Assembly (NCBI GenBank): GCA_963769885.1
Contig: CAVYNH010000004.1
Span: 256,001-320,000 of the forward strand
Direction: 5' to 3'
Length of the DNA: 64,000 bases
DNA from: Methanobacteriota archaeon
GTDB lineage: Archaea > Thermoplasmatota > E2 > DHVEG-1
A model generated the notes under the pieces. That model had not been told where the DNA came from. It saw nothing but the letters and a program-made list of their open reading frames with translations, and searched no databases. Every line of letters starts with the position of its first letter. Positions within the stretch are counted from its first letter, which is position 1. This document shows, piece by piece, positions 1 through 19,049 of this stretch. Position numbers and translations under genes: made by a program.

Positions 1-522
1 CGACACCCGCAGCCGCTCAAACATCGCCTGGATCACGGTTAGGTTCCCGATATTCAATACAATATCCTGCACACCGACCTTCTTCAAAATCGTGAACGCC
101 AGCGCGATCAACTCCGCATGCGCCTCAGGCGTATCCGTCCCCAGCAGCTCACAGCCCGCCTGCCAGAACTCCCGATACCGCCCCTTCTGCGGACGGTCAT
201 ACCGGAAACAATTCCCAAAATAGAACAGCTTCAACGGCTTCGGCGCCATCTGCAGCCGCTCGATGTAACAGCGGATCACCGGCGCCGTCAACTCCGGACG
301 CAACGCCAGCTCACGGCCGCCCTTATCCACAAAATTATACAACTCATCAATGATCGACGCCCCGGACTTCGCCGTAAACACCTCCAGCGTCTCAAACGCC
401 GGCGTCTGAATCTCCCCATACCCAAACCCCCGGAACGTCTCCTCTACCTGCCGTTGCACAAACCGGCGTTTCAACATCTCCTCGGGGACAAAATCCCGGG
501 TACCTCGGGGAATCTGGTACAC
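1..522 (-). CDS. hisS: Histidyl-tRNA synthetase, N-terminal part (runs off the window start)
   Basis: Manual translation from GTG at 522: MYQIPRGTRDF...QTPAFETLEVFTAKSG...LALRPELTAP...FRYDRPQKGRYREFWQ, the class II HisRS motifs. Not in the ORF track because it is open at the edge. Confidence 0.95.
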   Translation of the reverse strand, partial: MYQIPRGTRDFVPEEMLKRRFVQRQVEETFRGFGYGEIQTPAFETLEVFTAKSGASIIDELYNFVDKGGRELALRPELTAPVIRCYIERLQMAPKPLKLFYFGNCFRYDRPQKGRYREFWQAGCELLGTDTPEAHAELIALAFTILKKVGVQDIVLNIGNLTVIQAMFERLRVS

Positions 523-668
523 ACTCCGCAGGTACCCCCGGGCTCATATAAAGAGGTTTCTCTCGGAACCACACAGGAGCCGCACCAGGCCCAGACGGCG
601 ACCACCACGGCTCATAACTATTATAAACCATGACATAATAAAAGAACCATAGGAGGCACCCGACCCCC

Positions 669-2384
669 ATGAAGACCACCACACTCTTCGCCATCGGAAT
701 CACTATCCTCTTCCTCACCCTCTCTGGCGCCGCCAGCGCCCAGACGCCGCTCACCACCCTCAACCCACCCCCAGCCCCCATCCGCCAGCCCGCCGAATTC
801 GACCCCATGACCGGCGTCCTCATCGCCTACCCCTTCGGCATCTCCTACCCCGTCATCAAAGAAATGGCGGAAAACGAAACCGTCTGCACCATCGTCAGCA
901 GCCTCGCCACCGAAACCACCGTCCTCAACCTCTACACCGCGAACGGCGTCAACACCGCCCACTGCACCTTCCTCATCGCCCCCACCGACTCTTACTGGAC
1001 CCGCGACTACGGCCCCTGGTTCATCTTCACCGGCGACAACCAACAAGGCATCATCGACTTCACCTACAACCGCCCCAGGCCCAACGACGACCAAATCCCC
1101 ACCAAATACGGCCTCAACCAAAGCATCCCCGTCTACAATATGCCGCTCACCACCACCGGCGGCAACTACATGACCGACGGCCAAGGCAACGCCATCTCCA
1201 CCACCCTCGTCTGGGAAGAAAACACGGGCCTCACCCACGACCAGATCAACCAGACCATGCACGACTACTGCGGCATCAACCGCTACATGGTCGTCCCGGA
1301 CGTCAACAGCGAATACATCGAACACGTCGACTGCTGGGGCAAATACCTCTCCCCGGACACTATCCTCATCCGCTCCGTCCCCCCCACCCACTCTCAATAC
1401 AACAAGATCGAGGCCGCAGTCGCCTACTTTAAAAACCAGACCAGCTGCTACGGCACTCCTTACCACGTTGCCCGCGTCTACACCCCCAACGATGAGCCCT
1501 ACACCAACTCGCTGATTCTGGACAATAAGGTCTACGTCCCCGTCATGGGCGACGCCTATGACGCTGCCGCCCTTCAATCCTACCGGGACGCGATGCCCGG
1601 CTACGAGGTCTTGGGGTTCACCGGGTTATCCGCACATCCCTGGGAGTCCACGGATGCGCTCCACTGCCGCGCCATGGGCATCACCGACCGTTACATGCTC
1701 TACATCCAGCACGTCCCACTACAGAACCAGACCGCGAGCGCGTCTGGGTTCCCGGTCACGGCAACCATCCATGCCTACAGCGGCCAGAGCCTCCTCCCAG
1801 GCTCCCCTAGCGTCGTCTACAAGGTCAACAACGGGTCCTGGAACACGGTCACAATGACCTCGACCGGCGGGGATGGCTACACCGCGACAATTCCTTCCCA
1901 GTCGGGAGGCAGCAAGATCTCGTATTATATCCATGCCGAGGACGGCTCAGGGCGGTCTGAGAACCACCCGTACATCGGTGCGGCTGGCGCCCATAGCTTC
2001 ATGGTCATCGGCGAGCCGAACCATCCCCCAGCGACGCCGGATCGGCCACAAGGAGCTAGCTCTGGCAAGCCGAAACAGCCCTATACTTATACAGCGATGA
2101 CCACGGACCCGGACAACGACACCTTGCTGTATAAATGGGACTGGGGCGACGGGACGACAAGTGACTGGCTCGGCCCCTCTGCATCAGGAGCGGTTGTGAA
2201 CGCCACGCATACCTGGGCGAAGAAGGGGACGTACTCGGTCAAGGTCATGGCCAAGGACAGCAACGGTCTGGAGAGCGACTGGTCCGAGCCTCTGGCGGTG
2301 ACGATGCCGTATTCGTGGCTTGACATGCTCCACGACCGGTTCCCGATTGTGTATTGGCTGCTTATCCACCTCTGTCGATGGTAG
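669..2384 (+). CDS. Secreted agmatine/peptidyl-arginine deiminase family protein with Ig-like and PKD domains
   Basis: Signal peptide; PAEF, WTRDYGP, GGN, HVD and LHC motifs; C-terminal PKD (YKWDWGDG...HTWAKKGTYSVKV). Confidence 0.88.
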   Translation: MKTTTLFAIGITILFLTLSGAASAQTPLTTLNPPPAPIRQPAEFDPMTGVLIAYPFGISYPVIKEMAENETVCTIVSSLATETTVLNLYTANGVNTAHCTFLIAPTDSYWTRDYGPWFIFTGDNQQGIIDFTYNRPRPNDDQIPTKYGLNQSIPVYNMPLTTTGGNYMTDGQGNAISTTLVWEENTGLTHDQINQTMHDYCGINRYMVVPDVNSEYIEHVDCWGKYLSPDTILIRSVPPTHSQYNKIEAAVAYFKNQTSCYGTPYHVARVYTPNDEPYTNSLILDNKVYVPVMGDAYDAAALQSYRDAMPGYEVLGFTGLSAHPWESTDALHCRAMGITDRYMLYIQHVPLQNQTASASGFPVTATIHAYSGQSLLPGSPSVVYKVNNGSWNTVTMTSTGGDGYTATIPSQSGGSKISYYIHAEDGSGRSENHPYIGAAGAHSFMVIGEPNHPPATPDRPQGASSGKPKQPYTYTAMTTDPDNDTLLYKWDWGDGTTSDWLGPSASGAVVNATHTWAKKGTYSVKVMAKDSNGLESDWSEPLAVTMPYSWLDMLHDRFPIVYWLLIHLCRW

Positions 2385-2471
2385 GCTGACCTTCTTTCTT
2401 TTTATTTTTTCAAGGAGAAACTTCTTGTAGGGGTAGCCGTTATCCTGTTGTCGTCCACAGGTGAATCTCAT

Positions 2472-3105
2472 ATGGAACTCTCCTCAACAGTGTACAGGTT
2501 TGCGACCGCGCGTCTGAACTTCTTCAAATGGCGGTTTGAGCTTGGGTTTGTACAAAAAAGTCTTGCTCGCTGTGGTTTTCGCGGGCATCACCGGTTTGAG
2601 TGCCCAGTTGCGGTTCTATTTACCAGGTTCGCCGGTTCCCTTGACTGCGCAGACCTGCGCGGTGTTAATCACTGCGGTGGTCCTGGGGAAATGGTGGGGC
2701 GGGATCAGTCAGAGCCTGTATCTGGTGATCGGCCTTGCCGGCGTCCCGTGGTTCGCGGGGTTCAACGGTGGGCTTTCGTACGTCTTCGGGGCGACCGGTG
2801 GGTATCTCATCGGGTTCGTGCTCGCGGCGTTCCTGTTAGGCTACCTGGTGGATTCACGGGTTGAAAACAGACGGTTTTCCTCGATGTTCGGTCTGATGCT
2901 GGTGATGAACTTCGTGGTCATCTACGGCTGCGGGCTGGTGTATCTGTACTTGTGGAGCCTGGCCCATGGGATGGCCGTTGACTTCGTCGGCTTGTTGATG
3001 ATGGGCGCGGTGCCGTTCGTGGTTGGCGACCTGGTGAAGATCGGGCTTGCCTCTGGGTTCTCCTCGAGTATCGCTCCGAAGGAGTCGTTCGGCGCCGAGG
3101 CATAA
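2472..3105 (+). CDS. bioY: BioY biotin transporter S component, with an apparent +1 frameshift in the A6 run at 2554-2559
   Basis: PGSPVPLTAQT, GLAGVPWFAG and GATGGYLIGF motifs. The N-terminus MELSS...FFKWRFELGFV lies in another frame and joins if one A is removed. Confidence 0.88.
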
Positions 3106-3115
3106 GTCGTCTTTT

Positions 3116-3313
3116 TTATCGCTTTTTTTCGTTTTCTTTGACTTTGTAGAGGGTGATAGAGCCGTCTGAAAGGACGACCCATCGGAGTTTGTTGCCGTTC
3201 TTGAGTCTGAGGAGCTCGACGACTTCCGCGGGGACGGTGACGCGGCGGCGTGATCCGCGGATGGTGATTGCGGTGTCCTTGATGCATTTGACGGCGTTGA
3301 GGTCTACTTTCAT
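3116..3313 (-). CDS. Small AbrB/MazE/SpoVT-type DNA-binding protein directly after pstB
   Basis: RVTVPAEVVELLRLKNGNKLRW swapped-hairpin pattern; GGAGG Shine-Dalgarno upstream. Confidence 0.7.
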   Translation of the reverse strand: MKVDLNAVKCIKDTAITIRGSRRRVTVPAEVVELLRLKNGNKLRWVVLSDGSITLYKVKENEKKR

Positions 3314-3334
3314 GGTTTCCCTCCTTTTCTTTGG

Positions 3335-4099
3335 TTAGCTAATCTCACCGCTGAGGTAGGCTTTCATCTCAGGGCTGGTGGGGTTGGTGAAGACGGCGTC
3401 GGCGGGGCCTTGTTCGACGACCATGCCGAAGTAGAGGAAGATGACGTAGTCGGCGACGCGTTTGGCCTGCCGTAGGGTGTGGGTGACGAGGATGACGGTG
3501 AATTCTTTTTTGAGTTTGAGGAGGAGTTTTTCGATTTGTTTGGCCGAGATTGGGTCGAGGGCGGAGGTGGGTTCGTCGCAGAGGATGACTTCGGGTTTGA
3601 CGGCGATGGCCCGGGCGAGGCAGAGGCGTTGTTGTTGGCCGACGGAGAGGCGGCTGGCGGGGTCGTGGAGGCGGTCTTTGACTTCGTTCCAGAGGCCGAC
3701 CTCTTGGAGGCAATGGTGGACGCCTTCTTCGATTTTGTGGGGGTTTTTGCCGTGGTGGATGCGCAGCCCGTAGGCGACATTCTCGAAGATGGACATGGGG
3801 AGGGGGTAGGGTTTTTGGCTGATGAGGCCCATTTTTTTTCTGATGTCGGGGACGTTGAGGCCGGAGGTCATGATGTCGATGCCGTCGACGACGATTTCGC
3901 CCTCGATTTTGACGTCGTCTTGGATGTCGAGGAGGCGGTTGAAGGATTTGAGCAGCGTGGTTTTACCGCAGCCGCTGGGGCCGATGATGGCGGTGAGTTG
4001 TTTGGCGGGGATCTCGATATTGATGTTTTTGAGGACGGGGGTGGTGTGGATGGTGACGCTGAGGGAGCGGGTTTCGATTTGGGTGGTTGATTTTGTCAT
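3335..4099 (-). CDS. pstB: Phosphate ABC transporter ATPase
   Basis: GPSGCGKT, LSVGQQQRLCLARA, DEPTSALDP. Confidence 0.95.
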   Translation of the reverse strand: MTKSTTQIETRSLSVTIHTTPVLKNINIEIPAKQLTAIIGPSGCGKTTLLKSFNRLLDIQDDVKIEGEIVVDGIDIMTSGLNVPDIRKKMGLISQKPYPLPMSIFENVAYGLRIHHGKNPHKIEEGVHHCLQEVGLWNEVKDRLHDPASRLSVGQQQRLCLARAIAVKPEVILCDEPTSALDPISAKQIEKLLLKLKKEFTVILVTHTLRQAKRVADYVIFLYFGMVVEQGPADAVFTNPTSPEMKAYLSGEIS

Positions 4100-4115
4100 G
4101 GGGTCTCCTTGTTGT

Positions 4116-4967
4116 TTATTTGATGATGTATTTGGATGATTTTTTTGTGAGGTAGCGGGTGAGGATGCTGATGGCGAGGACGATGAGGAGGAGGACGAAG
4201 GCGACGGCGTAGGCTTTGTTTTGGACGGCTTTGTCTGGCATGCCGGCGAGGTTGAGGATGATGGTGGGGAGGGCGGCGGTCTGGTCGAAGAGGGAGGTGG
4301 GGAGGTAGTTGGAGTCGCCGACGGTGAGGAGGATGGAGGCGGCGTCGCCGATGCCGCGGCCGAAGCCGAGGAGGATGCCGGCGACGATGCCGGGCATGGC
4401 CTGGCGGCGGACGACGCGGATGGCGGTTTCGAAGCGGGTGCTGCCGAGGCTGTAGGCGCTTTCTTTGAGGCCGTGGGGGACGACTTTGATGGATTCGTCG
4501 ATGCTGCGGGTGATGATGGGGATTTCGAGGAGGGTGAGGGCGATGATGCCGAAGAGGACGGAGCCGTGGTTGATGCCGATGGCGAAGCTGATGGTGATGG
4601 CGAAGACGCCGTAGATGATGGAGGGGATGCCCCACATGAGGTCGAGGATGATGCGGATGGCGCTGGAGGCGGTGGTGCCGAGGAAGTCTTTTTGGAGGTA
4701 TATGGCGATGAAGATGCTGAAGAGGAAGGCGAGGATGGTGGCGGGGACGACGAGGAGGAGGCTGCCGGTGATGGCGTTGAGGAAGCCGCCGCCTGGCCCG
4801 AGGTAGAAGGTGCCGGCGGTGGTTTCGGTGAGCATTTGGAGGGAGAGGCTGGCGGCGCCGTTGAAGATAATGACGCCGACGATGAGGACGAGGCTGCCGA
4901 TGACGATGAAGACGGAGGCGATCATGAGGGCGAGGAAGATTTTTTCTTCGAGGGTGCGTCGGTTCAG
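4116..4967 (-). CDS. pstA: Phosphate ABC transporter permease PstA (probable CTG start at 4967; first ATG at 4925)
   Basis: GIPSIIYG and ESAYSLGSTRFE EAA loop. The ORF-track start at 5495 is a shadow inside pstC. Confidence 0.9.
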   Translation of the reverse strand: MNRRTLEEKIFLALMIASVFIVIGSLVLIVGVIIFNGAASLSLQMLTETTAGTFYLGPGGGFLNAITGSLLLVVPATILAFLFSIFIAIYLQKDFLGTTASSAIRIILDLMWGIPSIIYGVFAITISFAIGINHGSVLFGIIALTLLEIPIITRSIDESIKVVPHGLKESAYSLGSTRFETAIRVVRRQAMPGIVAGILLGFGRGIGDAASILLTVGDSNYLPTSLFDQTAALPTIILNLAGMPDKAVQNKAYAVAFVLLLIVLAISILTRYLTKKSSKYIIK

Positions 4968-6022
4968 TATGCCCACCTCTTGCTGGTGTGCCGGAGGACG
5001 AGGAAGGCGAGGAGGTTGAAGATGAGGACGACGAGGAAGAGGATGAGGGCGACGAAGATGAGGGCGGAGGCGAGGAGGGGGATGGAGCTGACTTCGGTGT
5101 AGTTGTTGGCGATGAGGCTGGCGAGGGTCTGGCCTGGGCCGAAGAGGCTGCTGGGGATGAGTTCTTGGTTGCCGATGACCATGCTGACGGCGATGGTTTC
5201 GCCGAAGGCTCTGCCGAAGCCGAGGAAGATGGCGGAGAGGATCCCGGGTCCGGAGGCGCGGAAGAGGACTTTTTTGACGGTCTCCCATTTGGTGGCGCCC
5301 AGTGAGAGGCTGGCTTCTTTGAGGGCGATGGGGATCGAGCTGATGGATTCGATGCAGAGGCTGATGATGATGGGGAAGACCATGATGGATAGGATCAGGG
5401 AGGCAGCAAAGAGGCCGAAGCCGCTGCTGGTGTGGACGCCGAAGGCGGGGGCGATGGTGTCGCGGACGACGGGGACGAAGACGAGGAGGGCGCATAGGCC
5501 GAAGACGACGGAGGGGACGCCGGCGAGGACGTCGATGAAGGGGCGGATGGTGTTGCGGAAGCGGCTGGGGGCGTATTCGGCGATGTAGATGGCGGTGAGG
5601 AGGGAGACGGGGACGGCGATGAGCATGGAGATGGCGGTGACGATGAGGGTGTCGATGATGACGGCGAAGAGGCCGAACTGGCCGGAGAAGGGTTTCCAGG
5701 TGGAGGAGAAGAGGATGTCGGTGATGGAGCGGCCTTCGAGGACGGTGAAGGAGCCGTTGATGAGGATGGCGATGAGGAAGATGAAGATGGCGAGGGCGGC
5801 GAGGGTGATGGTCATCATGAGGCGGGTGCCCAGGATGTCGAAGAGCCGGCGGCTGATCCTGATGAAGTCGAAGAAGATGATGACAAGGGAGACGGCGAGA
5901 AGGGCGAGGAAGATGATGAGATTATTGAGAAGGAAAAGGGAGAGGAGGGCGAGGATAAAGATCAACAAGGCAGAGAAGAAGGATCTCTTCTTGACGACGC
6001 TGGCTGCCTTGTTGAAGCGCAT
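4964..6022 (-). CDS. pstC: Phosphate ABC transporter permease PstC
   Basis: LAGVPSVVFG, EASLSLGATKWET, GRAFGETIAV. Confidence 0.95.
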   Translation of the reverse strand: MRFNKAASVVKKRSFFSALLIFILALLSLFLLNNLIIFLALLAVSLVIIFFDFIRISRRLFDILGTRLMMTITLAALAIFIFLIAILINGSFTVLEGRSITDILFSSTWKPFSGQFGLFAVIIDTLIVTAISMLIAVPVSLLTAIYIAEYAPSRFRNTIRPFIDVLAGVPSVVFGLCALLVFVPVVRDTIAPAFGVHTSSGFGLFAASLILSIMVFPIIISLCIESISSIPIALKEASLSLGATKWETVKKVLFRASGPGILSAIFLGFGRAFGETIAVSMVIGNQELIPSSLFGPGQTLASLIANNYTEVSSIPLLASALIFVALILFLVVLIFNLLAFLVLRHTSKRWAY

Positions 6023-6041
6023 GAGCGAGGTTGTGGTGTTG

Positions 6042-7046
6042 TTATGTTCCGAGTTTGCTGAGCTGGTCGGCGATGATGGCGTCGGGGACTGGGGCGTAGC
6101 CGTTGGTGATGGTGAGTTGTTGGCCTTCGGTTAGGATCCAGCGGACGAAGTCGCGGGTTGCGCCTGTGAAGTTGTTGAGGGTGACGAGATAGACGAGTCT
6201 GGCGGGTGGGGCGTGGAGGTTGCCGTTGATCTCGGCGTTGACGATGTCGGTGCGGGTGGTGTAGATGGTTTCGTTGGCGTCGAGTTTGCCGTTGCCGTTG
6301 AAGTCGATGGGGACGACGACGAGGCCGGTCTTGGGGCGTAGGGTGGAGTTGGAGTAGATGTAGTTGACGTTGCTGTAGCCGATGCCCAATTGGTCGCTGA
6401 TGATGGAGGCTGACATGCTGTCGTCTCCTTTGACCTTGGTGACGGTTTCGACGGTGGGGAAATCGTCTTGGGTGTAGTTGCCCAGGAACTTCGCCCAGGT
6501 TTCTGCGGCGCCGCAGACGTCGGAACGGGAATAGACCTTGATGACGTCGGTGACGGTTGTGTCGTTGACGAGCGTGCCCCAGGTGGTGATGTTGCGGGTG
6601 ATGAAGACGTCGCGGAACTGTTGCTGGGTGAGGCCGGTGGTGGTGATCTTGTCTTTGACGGGGTTCGCGTCGTTGATGGTTGGGAGGACTGCGTCTTTGA
6701 CTACGGCAACGAAGACGATGCCTTTGTCTGCTTCAGCGGTGGTGACGTCTCGGGAGACCATGCCGAGGTTGACGGTGCCTGCGAGGGCGTCGGACATGCC
6801 TTTTCCGGCGCCGCCGGATGAGACGTCGATGCGGATGTTGGTGTGGTTCTTTTGGTAGGTTTGGGCCCAGACGACCATCATCGGGTATAGGCTGTAGGCG
6901 CCTGAGACCTTGATGGTGTTGGTGGTTTGTTGGCTGGTGCAGCCGCTGAAGCCGACGACGACGAGGGTGGTGGCGAGGAGAAGCGTTGTGACGGCGAGCA
7001 GGGTTTTGCGCTCAGGCCTGTGGGTTCCTTTCCTTTCTTTCATCAT
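6042..7046 (-). CDS. pstS: Phosphate ABC transporter substrate-binding lipoprotein
   Basis: Lipobox FSGC; SGAYSLYP, GGAGKG and GMVSR motifs; first gene of the pst operon. Confidence 0.92.
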   Translation of the reverse strand: MMKERKGTHRPERKTLLAVTTLLLATTLVVVGFSGCTSQQTTNTIKVSGAYSLYPMMVVWAQTYQKNHTNIRIDVSSGGAGKGMSDALAGTVNLGMVSRDVTTAEADKGIVFVAVVKDAVLPTINDANPVKDKITTTGLTQQQFRDVFITRNITTWGTLVNDTTVTDVIKVYSRSDVCGAAETWAKFLGNYTQDDFPTVETVTKVKGDDSMSASIISDQLGIGYSNVNYIYSNSTLRPKTGLVVVPIDFNGNGKLDANETIYTTRTDIVNAEINGNLHAPPARLVYLVTLNNFTGATRDFVRWILTEGQQLTITNGYAPVPDAIIADQLSKLGT

Positions 7047-7118
7047 GAATCTGTCTCCTTTTTTGGTACTGGTAAGCGTGACATTGCCTACCCCATGGCC
7101 GTACCATAGGCGCCCGGG

Positions 7119-7178
7119 TATTTAAAAGTATTGGTAAATATTGGCAAAATGCCAAAATTGGAAATTTATTGGAAAACA
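7119..7178 (-). promoter_or_regulatory. pstS promoter (TATA-like TTTAAATA) with upstream ATTGGNAAW x4 repeats and a TTGGCA-N3-TGCCAA palindrome
   Basis: TTGG cores at 7131, 7141, 7158 and 7169; palindrome at 7141-7155. Confidence 0.55.
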
Positions 7179-7294
7179 GCCATGAAAATCAGCGTATTCG
7201 AGCCCAATCCTGTGACAACGGGGTTTTCGCGGAAAAAAAGCAAAAAACAGAAAAACAGCGAAAGGGGGAAAAAGAAAGGGAAAAAAGGCGCCGG

Positions 7295-7702
7295 CTATTT
7301 GAGCCAGACGCGTATCTGCGGGCGGTTCTGTTTCTCCTCGACCTTGGTCGCGATCTTCTCTTCGCGGGCCAGCCAGCCGAGCGCGCTGAACGCCTCGCTG
7401 ACGTCGATGCGGGCCATCCGGGCAAGCGTTTGAACATCAATCTCGCCCTTCTGGGACAGGACCCCCCAGATCTTGCCGGCGTCCGTGCCGATCTTCGTGG
7501 TCAGGTTCGTGTCCCCGAGCTTGTACACGGTGCCGTTCTTACAGATCTTGTTCTCGCGGGCCAGCCAGCCGATCGCAGCCTGCAGCTCGCGCTCATCCAG
7601 GAGCGTCATCGTCAGGAGCTTCGTCTCTGACAGCGGTCCCTTGCAGTTCAGTGTTTCCCATACCTTTCCAGCATGCTCTCCAAATTGAGTCACAGGTGTC
7701 AT
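7295..7702 (-). CDS. Tandem winged-helix (DUF2582-like) protein
   Basis: Two copies of G.xAGK(V/I)W..L...A(I/L)GWLARE.KI; alternative GTG start at 7723. Confidence 0.8.
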   Translation of the reverse strand: MTPVTQFGEHAGKVWETLNCKGPLSETKLLTMTLLDERELQAAIGWLARENKICKNGTVYKLGDTNLTTKIGTDAGKIWGVLSQKGEIDVQTLARMARIDVSEAFSALGWLAREEKIATKVEEKQNRPQIRVWLK

Positions 7703-8047
7703 ACTCTCGAATCCCACCTTCACTTATCGCTAGAAGGTATAGCCTACAAGGTTATTAGTGTTATGATTCTGCGAAGCACCGCGGAAAAAAAATTGAATAG
7801 ACAACGCTGACGCACCCCTATTATTATAGTACTGTGCGGCGCAATCGCCCGTAGGACTCGGATAAGACTCACTTCGCGTTCGGGTCGCTAGCTGAAGCAC
7901 GTGAAGGAAGACCGCCGAGTGAGGAGGCAGGAATAACAAGAGAGGGAGATACTAAATGGTTACTGTGACACACAAGGCAGTGCAATACCAGAAGGCGACA
8001 AAGGTTCGAACTGCATAAGAATCACATGATTATGCACCGTCATCTAA

Positions 8048-8290
8048 TCAAACAAAAAAATAAAAACTACTCACAATCACCAAAAGTAATCCAAATCCAA
8101 GCCAAATCCCAGCAAGTACCCAAAATCCAACTGGATTCTCTTCTCTATTCAGCGATAATACTTGACTTGAGTACCGAGGAACGAAACGAAGTTCACCCTT
8201 TCTAATGTAATAAATACCGAACGATATTAATCCTATCCCCAAAACAAAGAATATCAGAATTTTTTCTACGCCTACACCTGCTGACATCAC
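8048..8290 (-). CDS. Small two-TM hypothetical protein (AT-rich)
   Basis: Two hydrophobic helices around REENPVGFW. Confidence 0.55.
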   Translation of the reverse strand: MMSAGVGVEKILIFFVLGIGLISFGIYYIRKGELRFVPRYSSQVLSLNREENPVGFWVLAGIWLGFGLLLVIVSSFYFFV

Positions 8291-8364
8291 AGGATCAATG
8301 AAAGAATCCGCTGGTTGGTAATAACATTTTTCGAGGTTTGAGTTATCCTCTATTGCTCAAGGAG

Positions 8365-8427
8365 ACCTGTTAGTGACCACAGGACATTCCCCACAGATAA
8401 GTCCCCACATCATTTTTCCACAGAATC
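8365..8427. mobile_element. Relic terminus of a related IS6-like element abutting the TSD
   Basis: 8386-8427 matches the right end 15609-15650 at 28/42 positions without gaps; shared ACCTGTTA (8365 and 15592); CCACA repeated about every 14 bp. Confidence 0.6.
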
Positions 8428-8435
8428 CACCCCAA
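8428..8435. repeat. Left target-site duplication CACCCCAA
   Basis: Identical 8-mer at 15651-15658; both copies directly flank the TIRs. Confidence 0.9.
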
Positions 8436-8476
8436 GGTTCTGTGTAAAACCGTAGTGGGAATTTTGTAGTGGGAAA
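8436..8476 (+). repeat. Left terminal inverted repeat
   Basis: GGTTCTGTGTAAAACCGTAGTGGGAATTTTGTAGTGGGAAA; 36/41 identical to the reverse complement of 15610-15650. Confidence 0.9.
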
Positions 8477-8546
8477 ATAGGGTTGGTGTTTCTACAGATA
8501 TGTTTTTAAAGAAAAAATCAATATTAAAACATCTTTAAGAGATGAA

Positions 8547-8867
8547 ATGATGGGTTTCTTCAAGAAGAAAGCAGAGGAGAAAACATCTCATATCAAGAAA
8601 ATTGAAACTGATGATAAAGAATTTGAAGATGTCACATTAGAAAAAAATATTGATGCAGATATCGGATATACGAAACGTGATCTTTACATTGTTCCTGGTG
8701 TTGATGAAGTTGATATCCCAAGGTCAAAGGTAAGGCAGGAGTTTTTAACCAGACCTACGAATTATAGATGTACTAAGTGTAAGAGTATCCTCTATAATAC
8801 GAAACTTGATGGTAGACATTATTATTGCCCAATCTGTAATGTGCAATGGGATAAGGACGATTTATAA
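8547..8867 (+). CDS. Hypothetical protein with C-terminal zinc ribbon
   Basis: CTKC...CPIC. Confidence 0.65.
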   Translation: MMGFFKKKAEEKTSHIKKIETDDKEFEDVTLEKNIDADIGYTKRDLYIVPGVDEVDIPRSKVRQEFLTRPTNYRCTKCKSILYNTKLDGRHYYCPICNVQWDKDDL

Positions 8868-8980
8868 TGCCAATTGATTTGCATAAAACCTTAGTTAAAA
8901 CTGTTTTACTGTTTTTCTGATACATTGGATTTGTGTATTTTAGGTTTGCAAACTATTTAAAAACTTAAAGTGTTTATTCT

Positions 8981-9048
8981 TATGCCACCCCTATCAATCT
9001 CACTCATGTGTTTCGCCAACTATGAGTCTTTTTGATGGGGGTGGTATA
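8981..9048 (+). ncRNA. Candidate small hairpin RNA inside the transposon
   Basis: 17-bp stem whose only two non-Watson-Crick pairs are G-U on the + strand; inner 6-bp stem; TTTAAAAA about 25 nt upstream; T-run downstream. Confidence 0.45.
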
Positions 9049-9127
9049 TATAACCAATTTTTCTAAAAACAATATATAAAAGAAAAAGAAAAACTATATT
9101 AGATTAGATTAAATTTCTTATTCTAAA

Positions 9128-9889
9128 ATGCCGATTGCTCTAAGTGTATTTGGATTAGACGAAATAGAAGAGAAAATATTTTTAAATGAAACAAAAAAAA
9201 CCTTCTCTTTATCTGATTTCCAATCAAACCTAGATTCAATTGCGGAGATCAAAGATATCCAGCCAGCTACCACAACTTTCACTCGAACATCCTATAATCC
9301 TCAAACAAAACGAGCAAAGTATTATGTCGAGCATTGGACCGATACAAATAAAGAAATCATTCGTGCTTTCCTGAAAGACCCGGACGAATCAATTCTCTAT
9401 GCTGACCAACTTTTAAAACCATTAGCAACTCATAAATTTGAATATGGATTTCAAACCTTAGTTAAACTTAATATCATGATTGATTTCGTGGACAAAGAGA
9501 TTTTTGTTTTTATGAATAAAAGAATCGCTAAACAGATAATAAATCGTTTGGAGGCAGTAGGAGGTTTAAAATCTCTCCCTATTTTCTTGAACTTAAAAAA
9601 CATAAGTTAAAGTGCAGTTGTTCAAGATGTTAATATTGTGTGGGAAGATGAACTGGATGTTAATGTTAAAAAAATCGGATGGATAGGGGTTCAAGTTCAT
9701 AAAGATAAGAGAGTAGATTTAAGCAAAGCAACTGCAATAAAAGTCGAAATAATAAGCAATCAAAAAATCATCCCTGATGTTTTTATTTCTGATGATGCTA
9801 GATTAAGTTCATTGTCCCCTAATGTGGGCACAAGTGAAATGGTCCAGATTTATAAGATATTAAAGGAGAAGACCAAACAATTAAGTTAG
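9128..9889 (+). pseudogene. About 253-codon hypothetical gene interrupted by one in-frame TAA (9608-9610)
   Basis: ORFs 9128-9610 and 9638-9889 are in the same frame: ...KNIS*SAVVQDVNIVWEDEL... Confidence 0.65.
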
Positions 9890-10537
9890 TAGTTTTTTAA
9901 CAATTTCTTGAACCATTGATAATCCTTTAAAGTTAATGCTAACTGTGTTTTCCATTATTATTTTTATTTTAGTTTTAGATTCTTGGTCCTCCATATTGAT
10001 TATGTAATTCTCAATGACAAAGCCCTTTGGTTTTTTTATGCGAATTAATTTCCATTGAAAAGGAAGTTCTAGATCGAGTTTGCAATTCAACAAAGAACGA
10101 AAAATCTTTTTATTGATAAGACCTTCAAAATCAATTATTATCTCACTTATTTTTTTTGACAAATCTCTTAGTCCGGATTCCATTCTTTCAATTTCTACAT
10201 AGACCTCTTTGATAGATACTTTAAAAACAATAACAGAATAATGGCTATTGGAAAAATCAAGTTTTATTTCATTGTCAATTTTTTTTGTTCCTTCACCAAA
10301 CATTGAATGTACTTCATTTTTTATAATATTAAAATCAGTCTCTGTTTCAAAAGTAAAAATCAACCTAGCATTCGCTCCTTTATTTGTAACGATAGCCCAT
10401 TTTTTTCTTAGTCTATTTAAAAGATCATATTTGTCTTCTATAAGTAAACCTATTATCGAACCCACACAAGTAGTAATGATTAGAATAAAGCCGACATATG
10501 TATTAACAAACTCTACTATTGAATTAAAGTCAGTCAG
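9881..10537 (-). CDS. Hypothetical protein with N-terminal TM helix (probable CTG start at 10537; GTG at 10465)
   Basis: Frame stays open upstream of 10465 and completes a TM segment (YVGFILIITTCVGSIIGLLI); GGTGA SD; overlaps the upstream stop as CTGA. Confidence 0.65.
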   Translation of the reverse strand: MTDFNSIVEFVNTYVGFILIITTCVGSIIGLLIEDKYDLLNRLRKKWAIVTNKGANARLIFTFETETDFNIIKNEVHSMFGEGTKKIDNEIKLDFSNSHYSVIVFKVSIKEVYVEIERMESGLRDLSKKISEIIIDFEGLINKKIFRSLLNCKLDLELPFQWKLIRIKKPKGFVIENYIINMEDQESKTKIKIIMENTVSINFKGLSMVQEIVKKLLT

Positions 10538-10734
10538 CCTTTTTCACCTTCGTTATTTTCCTTGTTTTGTGCTTTTTCAAGGAGTTCGACTTTTTGTAAT
10601 TCGATAAGTCGTAGTCGTAATGTCTCGTGAACAAATTCGCTTGAATCTCTATAAAGAAACCTTTTGTTATTTACAATTTCATTGATTTTTTTATGAATTT
10701 CAATATCTAAGTTTAGGGTCTTATATTTCGCCAT
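10534..10734 (-). CDS. Ribbon-helix-helix (CopG/Arc-like) regulator, divergent from the transposase
   Basis: YKTLNLD...KKINEIV...YRDSSEFVHETLR pattern. Confidence 0.7.
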   Translation of the reverse strand: MAKYKTLNLDIEIHKKINEIVNNKRFLYRDSSEFVHETLRLRLIELQKVELLEKAQNKENNEGEKG

Positions 10735-10814
10735 AACACATATATGGCTTATATATATGTTATACTATTTAAGTATATTTAGATACCTTTAAATAGAGAT
10801 TGTAATATGTAATA

Positions 10815-11999
10815 TTGGCGAAATACATGAGTGAACGAATAGACATTAAAGAAATGGTGAATGCTCGAAGAGCACGAGGCATGATTCTCCTTGAAAACGG
10901 ATTTGAACCAAAGGAAATTAACTCGAAGACATGGATTGTCCCAAGCCAAACAGGGAACGGCACATATACGGTTCATTATGCGGATGATGAACGGACCATT
11001 TGGAGATGCACCTGCAAAGACTTTGAAATTCGAGGGCTCCCATGTAAACATATCAATGCCGTGAAAATCTGGAAAAATCTCCATGATAGATTCGAGCAAC
11101 TAAACCTTAAAGTGAAACAAAGCATCAGCCTTGGAAACACTGAGACTCAAGGATGCAAATTCTGCCATTCATCAGACATCACAAGATACGGCGTGAAAAA
11201 CGGGAAGCAAGTCTATTTCTGTAAATCATGCAATCGAAGATTCGTGAACAATATTGATTTTGAAAACATGAAGTACAACCCTAAGATAATCGCCTTGACG
11301 CTTGATCTCTATTTCAAAGGGATAAGCCTTCGGAAAATCAGCCACCACCTCAAGCAGTTCTATAATCTGAATATCAGCCACAAGTCCGTGTACAATTGGA
11401 TAGAGAAGTACGTAGGAATCATGAATGAGTATGTGAACAGTATTCAACCTGATATTGGGGGCGTGTGGCATACTGATGAGATGATGGTGAAGGTGGATGG
11501 TTCCTGGGAGTATCTCTGGAATGTAATTGATGAAAGCACTCGATTCCAGCTTGCATCTATCGTTTCAAAGGAACGTCACGTTAGGGATGCACGCATGGTG
11601 TTCCAGAAGGCGAAGAAGAATGCTGGAGGAAGGAAACCAAAGTACTTAGTCACGGATGGACTATTAGCATATCGTGAGGCCGTCAATAAGGAGTTTAATA
11701 CGAATCACGGCAATATTGAGCATCTTTGGAATGTAGGGATACAACATCACCCGAACAACAACCATGTAGAACGGTTACATGGCACTATCCGCCAACGGGA
11801 AAAAGTCATACGAGGAATGAAGATAGAAGAGACTCCGATTATCGAGGGACATAGGTTATACTATAATTTCATCAAGCCCCATGAGGCGTTGAACGGAAAG
11901 ACACCATCAGAAGAAGCAGGGATAACCATCGAAGGGGAAGATAAATGGCTTACTCTCATGAAGAAATCAATTCAATATCAGAAGGCGAATAAACAATAA
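10815..11999 (+). CDS. IS6-family DDE transposase with N-terminal SWIM zinc finger and zinc ribbon
   Basis: CTC...CKH (SWIM), CKFC...CKSC, HTH (SLRKISHHL...SVYNWI), WHTDE...LVTDG...NNHVERLH. Confidence 0.9.
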   Translation: MAKYMSERIDIKEMVNARRARGMILLENGFEPKEINSKTWIVPSQTGNGTYTVHYADDERTIWRCTCKDFEIRGLPCKHINAVKIWKNLHDRFEQLNLKVKQSISLGNTETQGCKFCHSSDITRYGVKNGKQVYFCKSCNRRFVNNIDFENMKYNPKIIALTLDLYFKGISLRKISHHLKQFYNLNISHKSVYNWIEKYVGIMNEYVNSIQPDIGGVWHTDEMMVKVDGSWEYLWNVIDESTRFQLASIVSKERHVRDARMVFQKAKKNAGGRKPKYLVTDGLLAYREAVNKEFNTNHGNIEHLWNVGIQHHPNNNHVERLHGTIRQREKVIRGMKIEETPIIEGHRLYYNFIKPHEALNGKTPSEEAGITIEGEDKWLTLMKKSIQYQKANKQ

Positions 12000-12059
12000 C
12001 CCCTTCTTTTTTTCTTTTGCCAAAATTAAAGAAGAATCGAACAATATCGAATATCAGTT

Positions 12060-14885
12060 ATGGAAGATGACCTTGTTAAACAAAAAGTACAATCACTCAT
12101 AGATGATTTCAGAAGTAATTATAACGAATACAAGAAAGAATCCGAAGCTAGTATAGAAACAAAACTAATTGAACCACTCTTCAAATGTTTAGGTTGGACT
12201 GAAAAAGATTTTAGCAAACGAGAACGAACACAACGAGAAGGCAAACTAGGTTTTGCGGATTACACGTTCTACATAAAAGATAAGAAAGTATTTTTCCTCG
12301 AAGTAAAAAAGATTGGAGTGCCGTTAGACAAAGAGGCAGATGCACAAGTCGTATCTTATGCTCTATCAAAATCTGTTTCCATCGCAATCTCGACGAATTT
12401 CGAACAGCTCAAAGTGTTTTGTGTCGAAGAAGAGAATTTAGATAAAAGAATGATTTCAATCTTCAAAACACCAGAAGATTACCTTGACAAATTCTATGAT
12501 TTGATTTTACTTTCTAAGTCTAGTTTTGAACAAGATCTCTTAATGAAAAAAGCTGAAGACCTTAATCTATTAAAAAAACGGATAACCATAGATAAACCAC
12601 TTCTTGACAACCTAATTCTTATCCGTAAGTTCATTGCTGATGATATAGAGAAAAAATATTCAGGGAAATATCAACCCAATGAAAAAGAAGAGATCATACA
12701 AAGAATTATCGACAGACTGATTTTCATCAGGAAATGCGAGGACACAGGAATTAACCCAGAGAACCTGACCCTAAAAGATGTCCTCACAGTAACTGATGAA
12801 AAAGCATACAAAAAATTAAAAGAGATATTCGAAGAATACAATACTCGATACAATAGTGGATTATTCGCCATCGATAAAGACAATGAATGCGATAGGATAC
12901 AGATAACTGGAGATATAATTAAAAAACTCATTGGATATCTCTACATTTCCAGAAACGGAGGATACCACTATAATTTCGAATGGATACCTGCCGATATTCT
13001 TGGACAAGTCTATGAACAATACCTTGGAAAGATACTAGAACAAACAAAATCAGGTAAAGCCAAACTAACAAATGGACAGGTACATCGAAAGGAACAAGGC
13101 ATTTATTATACGCCTACCTTTGTCGTTGATTATATCGTAAAAACTACAGTTGGAGAAGTGTTGAAGAATAAAAAAGTAAAAGTAAAGGAATTAAAAATAT
13201 TGGACCCTGCTTGTGGCTCGGGTTCTTTCTTAATCAAAGCTTTTGATTATATCTACCGAAATCAATCAACCGGGGATTCTCAACAATATAGAATTGACGG
13301 TCAAGGGCAGTATTCTGTTAAAACAGAGATACTGAAAAATAATCTGTACGGAGTGGATTTAGATAATAAAGCAATAGAAATAACCAAGTTAAATTTACTC
13401 TTAAAAGCAGCGGAGAAAGGAAGACGTTTACCTGTAGAGATTGACATCAACATAAGACAAGGAAATTCATTAATCGACGACGAATCAATTGCAGGATTGA
13501 ATGCTTTTAAGTGGACCGACAAAACAAAAAATAAGGACAACAGGAAATTTGACGTAGTTATTGGAAATCCGCCTTATATCAAGGTAGAACAAATTAAAAA
13601 AGAAGAAAAAGAATGGATTTATCAAAATTTTGAAAACGCTACTGGAAGAACTGATTTATACGTACTTTTTTTAGAGAAAGCATTAGAGCTAACAAAGGAC
13701 GACGGCCTAATCTCTTTCATTATTCCAAGTATATGGATGAAAGCGAAATATGGAGAAAAACTAAGAGAGAATTTGGTAAGAAACTATCAGATAAAATCAA
13801 TCATCGACTTCGGCGATCTTAAGGTCTTTGAAAGTGTCACCACTTATCCATGTATCATTTTGATTAAAAAGAAGAAACCAACTGGAAACGACACCATCAT
13901 CTATTATAAAGTTCCTAGTTTGAATGAATCAATAATTAACAATCTTGAAAATGCTATAAAAAAGGACTCTTGGATGATTAGGCAAAAAGAATTTGATTGG
14001 AACTTTGCAAATCCACAGGTAAAAAAAATATTCGATAAATTAAACAAATCATCAAAAATCAGGCTAAGTGACCTAAGAGACCAAATTTATGAAGGTTTGA
14101 TTACCGGAGATAACAAGGCTTTTTTTGTTGATAGAGAGACAGTAGAAACAAAAAATCTCGAAAGGGAATTGTTAAAACCTGTTCCAAAAGGAAAAAACAT
14201 CAGACGTTTTTCAATTCGGTGGGAAAAAGAATATGTCATATATCCTTACAAACAGAATATGCTTAAGACTGAACCTGTTAATATCAAAGAATATCCAAAC
14301 GTAAATTCTTACCTTGCTGAATTTGAAAAAAAGCTCACAGCTAGAACCTCAATTAAAGGGACTAACAAAAAATGGTTTGAACATGTTCGTCCTAGAGAAA
14401 AATGGTGGTTTGAAAAACAAAAAATCTTAACTCCAAACCTATCATCAAGTAACAACTTTGCTATTGACGAAGGACGTTCAAATGAATATTTTTATGTTGA
14501 CCATGATGCATATGCGATTACGCTAAAAACAAATAGCAGAGAAGATTTATTGTTTATTTGTGGGCTTCTTAATTCATCTCTTATAGAGTTTTACATTAAG
14601 CAGATAAGTCCTATGTTCTCAGGTGGATATTACAAATATCATACTCAATATCTTGATCCAATCCCGATAATTAAACCATCTAAAAAAGAAGAAATCAGAT
14701 TCGTGAAATTAGTCGAGAGGATTATTCTTCTGAATAAAACATTAACAAAGATTGGCGATAAAAAGACTGCCGAAAGTGCAAAACTCGAAGAAGAAATTAA
14801 GAAAGTTGATAATCAAATCGATGAACTTGTTTTTGACCTCTACCATTTGACCAAAGACGAAAAGGAGATTATTAAAAAATCTTAA
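12060..14885 (+). CDS. Type IIG restriction-modification fusion (nuclease, N6-adenine MTase and TRD)
   Basis: N-terminal ADY...EVKK nuclease; GIYYTP, LDPACGSGSFL and GNPPY; TaqI-C-like C-terminus. Confidence 0.9.
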   Translation: MEDDLVKQKVQSLIDDFRSNYNEYKKESEASIETKLIEPLFKCLGWTEKDFSKRERTQREGKLGFADYTFYIKDKKVFFLEVKKIGVPLDKEADAQVVSYALSKSVSIAISTNFEQLKVFCVEEENLDKRMISIFKTPEDYLDKFYDLILLSKSSFEQDLLMKKAEDLNLLKKRITIDKPLLDNLILIRKFIADDIEKKYSGKYQPNEKEEIIQRIIDRLIFIRKCEDTGINPENLTLKDVLTVTDEKAYKKLKEIFEEYNTRYNSGLFAIDKDNECDRIQITGDIIKKLIGYLYISRNGGYHYNFEWIPADILGQVYEQYLGKILEQTKSGKAKLTNGQVHRKEQGIYYTPTFVVDYIVKTTVGEVLKNKKVKVKELKILDPACGSGSFLIKAFDYIYRNQSTGDSQQYRIDGQGQYSVKTEILKNNLYGVDLDNKAIEITKLNLLLKAAEKGRRLPVEIDINIRQGNSLIDDESIAGLNAFKWTDKTKNKDNRKFDVVIGNPPYIKVEQIKKEEKEWIYQNFENATGRTDLYVLFLEKALELTKDDGLISFIIPSIWMKAKYGEKLRENLVRNYQIKSIIDFGDLKVFESVTTYPCIILIKKKKPTGNDTIIYYKVPSLNESIINNLENAIKKDSWMIRQKEFDWNFANPQVKKIFDKLNKSSKIRLSDLRDQIYEGLITGDNKAFFVDRETVETKNLERELLKPVPKGKNIRRFSIRWEKEYVIYPYKQNMLKTEPVNIKEYPNVNSYLAEFEKKLTARTSIKGTNKKWFEHVRPREKWWFEKQKILTPNLSSSNNFAIDEGRSNEYFYVDHDAYAITLKTNSREDLLFICGLLNSSLIEFYIKQISPMFSGGYYKYHTQYLDPIPIIKPSKKEEIRFVKLVERIILLNKTLTKIGDKKTAESAKLEEEIKKVDNQIDELVFDLYHLTKDEKEIIKKS

Positions 14886-15430
14886 AGACTAAATATTTTA
14901 ATCTCTTTTATTTTTTCATTGACATTTTCAGGAGAGCAACATGGTAAATATTTTTCTGCATTCTTACAAAAAATCGAATCAGTAGAAACTAAGAGGTCAC
15001 AACCTACTTCTAATGCTGTTGCGAGATGAATCGAATCAGAAGCAGAAAGATTAGACTCTTTGCAAATCTTTATTGCCTTTTCGATGGCTACTTCATCTAA
15101 CCAATAAAATTGTACAAATTTATATGGAGTGAAAAACCTGTTTTTGATTTTTGTATAAATTAATTCTAGGGTCTTATCTGATAAATCTTTATCATCCCTT
15201 TTTCTTAAAATTTTTTTAAATGTCCATCCTTCTTTGATTTTTTCATAGATAAATTCATTATCCTTCTGCACACTTAAAGCTTCCATTAATGCAAATTGAG
15301 ATGTAATACAGTCCCATCCATTATTTTTTATTTCCTCTATCAGGTCAATGGAAGGAGTATGTATGCCTTGGACAATGTCAACAATGATGTTTGTATCTAT
15401 GTAAATCTTGGGTTTTATGAATACTTCCAT
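14882..15430 (-). CDS. PIN-domain (VapC-like) nuclease
   Basis: IYIDTNI...EA...DSIHLATA...LVSTD acidic PIN motifs. Confidence 0.85.
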   Translation of the reverse strand: MEVFIKPKIYIDTNIIVDIVQGIHTPSIDLIEEIKNNGWDCITSQFALMEALSVQKDNEFIYEKIKEGWTFKKILRKRDDKDLSDKTLELIYTKIKNRFFTPYKFVQFYWLDEVAIEKAIKICKESNLSASDSIHLATALEVGCDLLVSTDSIFCKNAEKYLPCCSPENVNEKIKEIKIFSL

Positions 15431-15432
15431 AA

Positions 15433-15591
15433 TTAAAATCTTGGCCTTCTTTTTTTGACATGTCTTGATGGTTTCCTTCTTCTACTGAAAAAAACTTTAT
15501 TGGAACTTATAGATTGACCATCCATAGTCTCCTCTGCCTTGCCTTCTGAATAATTAATCTCTGATTTATCATTTTCCTTTTTGTCGGCCAT
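15433..15591 (-). CDS. 52-aa ORF directly upstream of the PIN gene (possible antitoxin)
   Basis: MADKKENDKSEINYSEGKAEETMDGQSISSNKVFFSRRRKPSRHVKKRRPRF*, ending 2 nt before the PIN ATG. Confidence 0.5.
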   Translation of the reverse strand: MADKKENDKSEINYSEGKAEETMDGQSISSNKVFFSRRRKPSRHVKKRRPRF

Positions 15592-15609
15592 ACCTGTTAC
15601 CACTCTTGA

Positions 15610-15650
15610 TTTCCCACTACTAAATTCCCACTACTCCCTTACACAGAACC
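15610..15650 (-). repeat. Right terminal inverted repeat
   Basis: Reverse complement reads GGTTCTGTGTAAGGGAGTAGTGGGAATTTAGTAGTGGGAAA. Confidence 0.9.
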
Positions 15651-15658
15651 CACCCCAA
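15651..15658. repeat. Right target-site duplication CACCCCAA
   Basis: Identical to 8428-8435. Confidence 0.9.
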
Positions 15659-15671
15659 CAAGGTTTATATA
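15657..15671 (+). promoter_or_regulatory. BRE/TATA promoter of the ribosomal protein operon
   Basis: Purine-rich AACAAGG followed by TTTATATA (15664-15671), about 200 nt before rpl3. Confidence 0.65.
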
Positions 15672-15867
15672 CCAAATCCGGTATGCCAAGTAATCCTGGT
15701 CCTAACCAGACACGCATCCGGGCAATACCCACCACGGGCACCCCCGGCAAACAACGACCCACCAATCACTTCTTGGGCCGCGGCGGACATGTCACGGTTA
15801 GCGACACACACCACAGCAGGAAACCGAAGGAAACTTCAGTCTTCCAACTCACGGCAGAGGATACATT

Positions 15868-16860
15868 ATGCCAAACATCCACCATCCAAAAAGAGGCTCC
15901 CATGGATACTGGCCCCGCAAACGCGCCGCCAGCCAAACCCCCCACATCCAACGCTGGATCCAGGGCGGCGACAAACCCAAACTCCAAGCCTTCTTCGGAT
16001 ACAAAGCCGGCATGACCCACGCCTTCGTCGTCGACTACCGACCCACCAGCACCACCAGCGGCCGCGAAGTCAAAGTCCCCGTCACCGTCGTCGAAACCCC
16101 CCCTATGAGAATCGCCGCCATCCGCGCCTACCAACGCGACGCCTACGGCCTCCACGTCACCTACGAAACCTGGGCAGACAACCTCGAACCAGAACTCAAC
16201 CGACGCATCCCCATGCCTAAGAAAAAAACCCAGGCTCCAAAAGAGATCCCCACCGACGCCGAAGAAATCCGCGTCATCACCTACACCCAACCCAAACTCG
16301 TCACCGGCGTCCCCAAAAAAGCCCCCGAGATCACCGAAGTCAAAATCGGCGGCGGCACCATCCAAGACCAGATCACCTACGCTAAAAGCATCCTCGGCAA
16401 AGAACTCAAAATCAGCGACGTCGTCAGCGAAGGCGACATGCTCGACACCATCGCCGTCACCAAAGGCAAAGGATTCCAAGGCACCATCAAGCGCCACAAC
16501 GTCAAACTCCTCTTCCACAAAAACAGCAAACACCGACGCCTCATCGGCACCGCAGGCTCCTGGCACCCCAGCTACGTCCAAGCCACCGTCCCCCAGGCGG
16601 GACAAATGGGCTACGCCCAACGCACCGAATACAACAAGCGCGTCCTGAAGATCGGCGACAACGGCACCGAGATCACCCCCGCCGGCGGCTTCCCCAAATA
16701 CGGCGTCGTCCGCAACTCCTACATCCTCCTCCACGGCAGCATCCCCGGGCCCACCAAACGCCTCATCGGACTCCGAGACGCCATCCGCTACCAGCGCGGC
16801 GTCAAAGTCCAAAAACCAGAGGTCACCTTCATCTCAGTCAGCAGCAAACAAGGAGTGTAA
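15868..16860 (+). CDS. rpl3: 50S ribosomal protein L3 (uL3)
   Basis: PKRGSHGYWPRKRA, GYKAGMTH, KGKGFQG, AGQMGY. Confidence 0.97.
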   Translation: MPNIHHPKRGSHGYWPRKRAASQTPHIQRWIQGGDKPKLQAFFGYKAGMTHAFVVDYRPTSTTSGREVKVPVTVVETPPMRIAAIRAYQRDAYGLHVTYETWADNLEPELNRRIPMPKKKTQAPKEIPTDAEEIRVITYTQPKLVTGVPKKAPEITEVKIGGGTIQDQITYAKSILGKELKISDVVSEGDMLDTIAVTKGKGFQGTIKRHNVKLLFHKNSKHRRLIGTAGSWHPSYVQATVPQAGQMGYAQRTEYNKRVLKIGDNGTEITPAGGFPKYGVVRNSYILLHGSIPGPTKRLIGLRDAIRYQRGVKVQKPEVTFISVSSKQGV

Positions 16861-16863
16861 TCC

Positions 16864-17625: not shown

Positions 17626-17626
17626 C

Positions 17627-17884
17627 ATGGACCCCTACGCCATCGTCCTCTACCCCCACGTCACTGAGAAAACCATGATGCAGATGGAACAGAAGAACGC
17701 TCTCGAGTTCATCGTCCGACGCACCGCGGCAAAGGCGCAGATCAAGGCCGCCGTCGAAAAAATGTTCGACGTCAAAGTCAAGAGCGTCAACACCCGCATC
17801 ACCAAAATCGGCAAACACGCCACCGTCATCTTCATGCCAGAGTTCAAGGCAGAGGACATCGGCATGCGCATAGGAGTCTTCTAA
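17627..17884 (+). CDS. rpl23: 50S ribosomal protein L23
   Basis: PHVTEK...VEKMFDVKVKSVNT. Confidence 0.95.
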   Translation: MDPYAIVLYPHVTEKTMMQMEQKNALEFIVRRTAAKAQIKAAVEKMFDVKVKSVNTRITKIGKHATVIFMPEFKAEDIGMRIGVF

Positions 17885-17896
17885 AGAGGTGAACCC

Positions 17897-18604: not shown

Positions 18605-18611
18605 ATGACTC

Positions 18612-19043: not shown

Positions 19044-19049
19044 TGAGCC

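Follow-up and report, generated by a model that had tools for sequence, protein, structure and literature searches.

Results

Organization of the rpl3 upstream region

In the window, by which we mean the whole 64,000-nucleotide stretch of DNA analysed here, the region upstream of the ribosomal-protein operon (rpl3 followed by rpl4, rpl2, rps19, rpl22 and rps3) is occupied by an intact cargo transposon, designated element W, and by the remainder of an older relative that ends flush with the left target-site duplication of element W (Table 1). The G+C content of element W is about 0.30-0.35 as compared to about 0.6 in the flanks. Its terminal inverted repeats of 52 nt are 81% complementary, with 20 of 24 positions matching at the tips, and the surrounding 8-bp duplication is perfect. 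Both ends start with GGTTCTGTGT, i.e. with GG tips and an internal CTGT motif, and repeated boxes are found within the about 50 nt of each repeat.

Table 1. Features of the rpl3 upstream region (positions in the window).
Feature	Position	Strand	Basis
Relic transposase remnant, IS6-type C-terminus (about aa 340-393), frameshifted	7855..8003	+	tblastn, own-genome search, DNA identity
80-aa ORF between relic transposase remnant and relic end	8048..8290	-	ORF list; low G+C, as in the relic
Right terminal inverted repeat of the relic (older related element)	8365..8427	+	28/42 match, end model, three subterminal boxes
Left target-site duplication copy CACCCCAA; also spacer between relic end and element W	8428..8435	.	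sequence
Element W, intact IS6-family cargo transposon, 7,215 bp	8436..15650	+	terminal inverted repeats and perfect 8-bp duplication
Left terminal inverted repeat of element W	8436..8487	+	repeat search, end model
Transposase of element W, 394 aa	10815..11999	+	Pfam PF04434, PF13610; NCBIfam NF033587, NF050000
Cargo: type IIG restriction-modification enzyme (Eco57I/MmeI-like), 941 aa	12060..14885	+	Pfam PF07669, PF02384, PF12950, PF20473
Cargo: PIN-domain protein, 182 aa	14882..15430	-	Pfam PF01850
Right terminal inverted repeat of element W	15599..15650	+	repeat search, end model
Right target-site duplication copy CACCCCAA	15651..15658	.	sequence
BRE-like CAAGG (5 bases) and TATA box TTTATATA, intact rpl3 operon promoter	15659..15671	+	G001 homologue, family conservation, target logo
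rpl3, first gene of the ribosomal-protein operon	15868..16860	+	ORF list; 94% identical to same-genus orthologue

Beside the transposase gene, element W holds at least six open reading frames, among them those for a restriction-modification enzyme and a PIN protein. The transposase is composed of a SWIM zinc finger (aa 51-84), a zinc ribbon of the IS1/IS1595 type (aa 114-145) and an IS6 core with DDE. The core matched the full NCBIfam profile NF033587 with 134.2 bits (cut-off 125; aa 149-354) and Pfam PF13610 with 74.9 bits (cut-off 27). An AlphaFold2 model of the protein calculated from a 14-sequence alignment was poor (mean pLDDT 52). Within element W, 20 bases at positions 9000-9019 are 95% complementary to the start of the transposase gene (10815-10834).

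A truncated older element next to element W

The initial annotation had noticed that the 42 bp left of the duplication resemble the right end of element W in the same orientation and that both are followed by CACCCCAA. Its coordinates and counts are right: positions 8386-8427 align without gaps to 15609-15650 with 28 of 42 matches. When the right end was scored against all 127,918 42-mers of the window on both strands, only three segments reached 28 matches: the relic (28), the left inverted repeat (36) and the right end's own sequence (42). The next values were 25 for an offset self-match and 24. The similarity further in is likewise real, as ACCTGTTA is present at 8367-8374 and at 15592-15599 and joins the alignment via one 4-base gap. 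The relic has retained the subterminal architecture of the live ends, namely three short boxes spaced by about 15 bases, and its tip is mutated, reading GA, not GG, in the inward direction.

Upstream of this end and in the same orientation we found a transposase remnant, indicating that the relic is a true truncated older element. The remnant matched family transposases in tblastn (E about 1e-8, with a frame change near 7962) and was also recovered in a search of the organism's own genome, where it shares 71% DNA identity with the 3′ end of the transposase gene of the copy on contig C1. In total, about 0.6 kb of the right-hand part is left, oriented as element W and ending at 8427. Like the initial annotation, we looked for the left end of the relic and found none. 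Compared with a same-genus genome, the host flank is clearly homologous as far as 7771 and marginally so as far as 7837, a match that 8 of 500 shuffles equalled, and a weak transposase-like translation may extend back to 7780. Taken together, these limits place the left boundary of the relic within 7772-7855, and the missing left part was probably lost together with some host spacer. The 80-aa open reading frame between remnant and end, which is without Pfam match, is possible relic cargo. Rfam and tRNA scans of positions 6500-17000 gave nothing relevant at the joint of relic and element.

The rpl3 promoter and its empty counterpart

The TATA box TTTATATA at 15664-15671 starts five bases past the right copy of the duplication, and BRE and TATA box are intact, just as initially described. 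In 15 of 21 family genomes checked, a TATA box is located 174-204 bases upstream of the rpl3 start, in the remaining ones 110-228 bases, and in the same-genus genome G001 it is found 196 bases before the start codon at the homologous place. This conservation across the family identifies the box at 15664 as the conserved promoter of the rpl3 operon, which has a long leader.

The G001 genome, whose Rpl3 protein is 94% identical, has the same flanking genes and an empty site. About 230 bases of spacer extend from a DUF2582 gene to the TATA box, a similar octamer is present, and relic and element are both missing. The 42-bp segment is absent there as well and is not conserved host promoter sequence. 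Instead, a transposase remnant plus an end, neither of which occurs in G001, supports the earlier proposal that two related elements hit the same base. A TATA box supplied by the element itself was ruled out, as empty sites have it too.

The leader itself (15672-15867) measures about 196 bases from TATA box to start codon. It contains a block of 34 bases (15692-15725) with a short inverted repeat able to form a hairpin; the same-genus genome has this block unchanged, and it can still be recognised in the metagenome lineage L065 and in G006, a genome of another genus. The leader, which is without Rfam match, may be an autoregulatory ribosomal-protein leader.

Related elements insert in a fixed register upstream of TATA boxes

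Related elements were collected from 20 loci of species genomes and 80 loci of metagenomes, most loci thus being metagenome contigs. Without regard to the flanks, a sequence was accepted as an element if it had GG tips, inverted repeats identical at no fewer than 17/24 positions and a perfect 8-bp duplication. After removal of duplicates by duplication and flanks, 32 non-redundant elements were obtained, among which related populations may remain; the two C1 copies, which are one copy doubled in a foldback, were counted once.

In 24 of the 32 elements, the motif TTTAWATA (at least 7 of 8 positions, 18 times perfect) starts exactly at +14 outside one end, i.e. after the duplication plus five bases. 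With at least 6 of 8 matching positions the number increases to 27. The other 54 offsets gave 15 TATA matches in total, 0-3 each. The background rate of the motif in these loci is 0.39% per position, which gives a probability of about 5e-44 for 24 out of 32. One-sided ends beyond the 32 elements also follow the rule. Insertion by this family therefore keeps a constant register to archaeal core promoters, and random flanks of homologous elements, an outcome that the initial annotation had considered, were not observed. Since all target duplications differ and either end can face the TATA box (left 14, right 18), the insertions are independent events; the shared orientation of the relic and element W is not a family rule.

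One might object that insertion is random and that elements survived only where genes and promoters were spared, piling up upstream of promoters. Assemblies do show fixed or surviving insertions only, and insertions are tolerated in intergenic DNA upstream of promoters. Such selection leaves the single-base precision unexplained, however, as insertions a few bases further upstream would be equally harmless, and at thermosome genes the insertion moves a conserved block away from the core promoter, a position that does not stand out as the most neutral one. We regard this explanation as barely credible. Nevertheless, as only survivors are visible, selection may sharpen the picture of the register.

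At the 17 non-thermosome targets, conservation is confined to the TATA box, a BRE-like AA within the five bases before it and two promoter positions further downstream. Since the target logo shows no conservation of the duplicated octamer, a sequence-specific octamer was rejected as target. Thermosome promoters account for about half of the sites, so that part of the signal derives from one promoter type, and the 17 other sites show the signal too. The rule is not absolute. Five of the 32 elements are without convincing TATA box at +14, and deviations by 1-2 bases were seen in G006 at rpl3 and in L078. The rule reaches transposases that are 38-57% identical, less regularly, and among distant clades (35-40% identity) it held in some and not in others. 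A phylum-wide search with 20 fetched regions added three newly resolved elements with mixed results.

Target promoters in this and other genomes

The targeted genes encode the thermosome, Rpl3, Rpl44e, Rps8e, Hsp20, a zinc-ribbon protein resembling RNA polymerase M/TFS and a few others. All three copies in the organism's own genome sit at promoters, namely those of the rpl3 operon, the thermosome and the 16S rRNA operon. The C1 copy has a different duplication, and its surroundings mirror those of element W with a decayed end flush on one side and the duplication, five bases and a TATA box on the other. The third copy (L153; contig C6, 779104-783583) is 4.5 kb long and has its own 8-bp duplication. 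It keeps the register to a TATA box, about 410 bases ahead of the 16S rRNA gene.

Empty thermosome promoters were found in 11 of 61 family genomes. They consist of a conserved upstream block, 8 bases, 5 bases and the TATA box and thus have the occupied architecture minus the element and one octamer. The rpl3 promoter is independently occupied in L065 by two elements in opposite orientation at another octamer; the tip of the distal one shares 20 identical bases with the left end of element W. In G006 the rpl3 promoter is occupied as well, with the TATA box at +15.

Elements are stacked at the promoter-proximal octamer

Twelve of the 32 elements adjoin the end of another element right after the 8-bp duplication, and ten of these have a TATA box at +14 on the other side. 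The two exceptions are the outer member of a triple stack and an element whose TATA box is shifted by 2. With a broader end model, all ten abutting pairs had a gap of exactly 8 bases, and no other gap from 0 to 40 occurred. L046 and L105 each have three copies of one octamer, which flank the stack on its outer and promoter sides and separate its members. Visibly decayed or cut-down stack members are promoter-distal in the window, in C1, in L046 and in L105. The distal element at the rpl44e promoter of L105 (11248-12276) is 1,029 bp long, has family ends and the same octamer on both sides, and is probably a non-autonomous, internally deleted derivative.

These stacks bear on the alternative that the end of an older relative attracted the new element, the promoter being incidental, as known from IS26 inserting next to IS26 and IS30 at inverted repeats. 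The number of adjoining ends is in line with it, and so is the fact that the top-strand target bond of the new element equals the bond that the transposase would cut at the right end of the relic. However, 20 of 32 elements are without neighbouring end and the unstacked ones lie in the same TATA register, empty thermosome promoters present the target without any end, most stacked elements face a TATA box at +14 regardless of their neighbour, and decayed members are always promoter-distal. The relic and the new end are only 67% identical, and the gap is always the 8-bp duplication and never 0, which differs from targeted conservative insertion by IS26 (PMC7986276). Targeting next to pre-existing ends, one of two options in the initial annotation, is thus very improbable, whereas its other option, a promoter-proximal preference, is favoured by single unstacked elements in the same register.

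Discussion

The most plausible explanation of the joint upstream of rpl3, to which we assign a probability of roughly 0.9, is two successive insertions of related IS6-family cargo transposons at the same 8 host bases as a result of targeting in a promoter register. The staggered cuts enclose the octamer that occupies the positions 13 to 6 bases before the first T of the TATA box and borders the BRE on its upstream side. Owing to the duplication, one octamer copy always remains beside BRE and TATA box; the promoter is thereby preserved and the landing pad restored. A further element of the family takes the promoter-proximal octamer and pushes the earlier one outward, giving rise to the order old end, 8 bp, new element, same 8 bp, 5 bp and TATA box. 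At rpl3, the older element arrived first and later lost its left part, and the 7.2-kb element W followed. As each insertion regenerates the 8-bp target beside BRE and TATA box, newcomers stack. A regenerating landing pad also explains the flush end of the relic, as its predictable consequence, and makes attraction to old ends unnecessary.

How the register is read can be envisaged in two ways. Guidance by host factors, i.e. by the initiation complex of a TBP-bent TATA box and TFB on the BRE, is slightly better than an even bet in our estimation. Two observations fit this idea, namely that the busiest promoters are preferred and that insertions border the upstream side of the BRE, the site occupied by TFB. 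Alternatively, the transposase might recognise the BRE/TATA sequence or its bendability directly, e.g. via the zinc ribbon, with TBP and TFB playing no part. Direct DNA recognition is common among site-specific transposases, conservation at the targets coincides exactly with the BRE-like AA and the TATA box, and SWIM-less transposases with a zinc ribbon keep the register. On the other hand, targets are the busiest promoters, yet near-consensus TATA octamers occur at 0.39% of all positions, and the TATA box is unlike the transposase-site boxes in the element's own ends. As strong promoters also have the best consensus, the argument from promoter activity does not decide against direct reading. 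We consider direct reading nearly as likely as reading of the TBP/TFB-bound promoter, its chances being moderately below even.

The initial annotation had suggested tethering to TBP/TFB, possibly via the SWIM domain. A role of this domain in targeting is weakened by SWIM-less relatives. The L114 element, seen twice, has no SWIM motif in any frame, encodes a transposase of 320 aa with zinc ribbon and IS6 core only, and is followed by a TATA box at +14. The SWIM-less L113 behaves like L114, and the equally SWIM-less L108 is stacked with an 8-bp gap. Since these relatives keep the register, the SWIM finger is probably dispensable for it and probably not the promoter reader. The closest SWIM-less genomes provided no element ends in the phylum-wide search and its 20 regions.

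Judged from its transposase, ends and duplication, element W is a member of the IS6 family, albeit an atypical one. In common with IS26, IS257 and IS240, it has a core that passes the NCBIfam IS6 equivalog and Pfam DDE_Tnp_IS240 models, ends with GG followed by the CTGT motif and an 8-bp target duplication; GG tips and the CTGT motif are end features of the family (PMC7986276). The family is further characterised by transposition via replicative cointegrates, which recombination then resolves. Typical members comprise about 0.8 kb with a single gene and have no marked target preference (PMC7986276, PMC6807381). The IS6 review lists only one member with a passenger gene, restricts zinc-finger extensions to clostridial clades and mentions neither a SWIM domain nor promoter targeting (PMC7986276). 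In contrast, the elements described here (7,215 bp for element W, 2-8 kb for its relatives) carry cargo on both sides of the transposase gene, have 50-nt ends with repeated boxes, SWIM and zinc-ribbon extensions, and insert with base precision upstream of a TATA box.

Targeted conservative insertion by IS26 also places a new unit directly beside an older related copy and builds arrays, but it requires matching ends and leaves neither gap nor duplication (PMC7986276). At element W, spacer and duplication are both present and the relic end matches in 28 of 42 positions. Throughout the family, the duplication accounts for the 8-bp gap, a neighbour of only 67% identity or in a decayed state is tolerated, and it is the promoter that determines the position.

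The yeast retrotransposon Ty3 is directed to the start sites of Pol III genes by TFIIIB, a factor that includes TBP and Brf1, the homologue of TFB. Ty1, Tf1 of S. pombe and the TRE elements of Dictyostelium can be named alongside it. The resemblance to our elements is one of outline: a fixed position beside a TBP-containing complex, sparing of the gene, a preference for active promoters and repeated insertion. In the archaeal family, the fixed position relative to the TBP-bound promoter element is documented by the 24 of 32 elements at +14 and by the 8 + 5 bases of the empty sites. Factor dependence has been demonstrated for Ty3, a eukaryotic retroelement whose life cycle is unrelated to that of IS6 elements, whereas here it is postulated, the site lies upstream of BRE and TATA box rather than at the start site, and the two systems have no relationship. 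We tentatively propose, at odds just short of even, that a widespread archaeal clade of IS6 cargo transposons is guided by TBP/TFB, which would make it a prokaryotic counterpart of Ty3/TFIIIB, and incidentally builds integron-like cargo stacks at the strongest promoters. If so, defence and other cargo genes would be stacked directly upstream of the promoters of rRNA, ribosomal-protein and chaperonin genes.

Tn7 inserts at attTn7 downstream of glmS via TnsD. It uses one sequence-specific site per genome and a dedicated targeting protein, and target immunity prevents stacking. Like Tn7, the family described here follows a safe-harbour strategy, inserting at an exact distance from a feature conserved in an essential gene. 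In contrast to Tn7, it uses many promoters, stacking is common, and no dedicated targeting gene was identified.

Neither a full-text literature search nor the IS6 review nor a survey of insertion sequences in archaea from 2026 yielded any mention of such targeting. For Archaea, a DNA transposon that inserts with base precision at the upstream border of BRE and TATA box thus appears to be undescribed. If the register is read from TBP/TFB, it would represent an independent prokaryotic invention of the TFIIIB strategy of Ty3 and a simple system for studying how a transposition machinery docks on the transcription initiation complex. The rule marks active core promoters in uncultured archaea, each insertion pointing to a TATA box, and accounts for the tandem arrays in which mobile cargo such as restriction-modification and PIN genes is found before housekeeping genes. 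The rule might also be put to use for inserting DNA at a defined position upstream of archaeal promoters.

The safe harbour may not be wholly free of harm, as every insertion parts the upstream block from the core promoter by kilobases. At thermosome promoters, this conserved block comprises about 30 bases, ends with ...TTCGGAACTACTGC directly upstream of the 8-bp target and could be a regulator site. The TTCGGAACTACTGC block was seen in the flanks of L041, L042, L050 and L061 and at the empty sites L195-L205.

In the organism's own genome, contig C1 starts with a foldback of 19.4 kb (1-19446), whose inverted arms are 98.9% identical and meet near 9725. It is probably an artefact of long-read assembly and doubles the thermosome-side transposon. 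Between the foldback arms, at about 7782-11669, lie tandem repeats of roughly 190 bases that are 81-84% alike.
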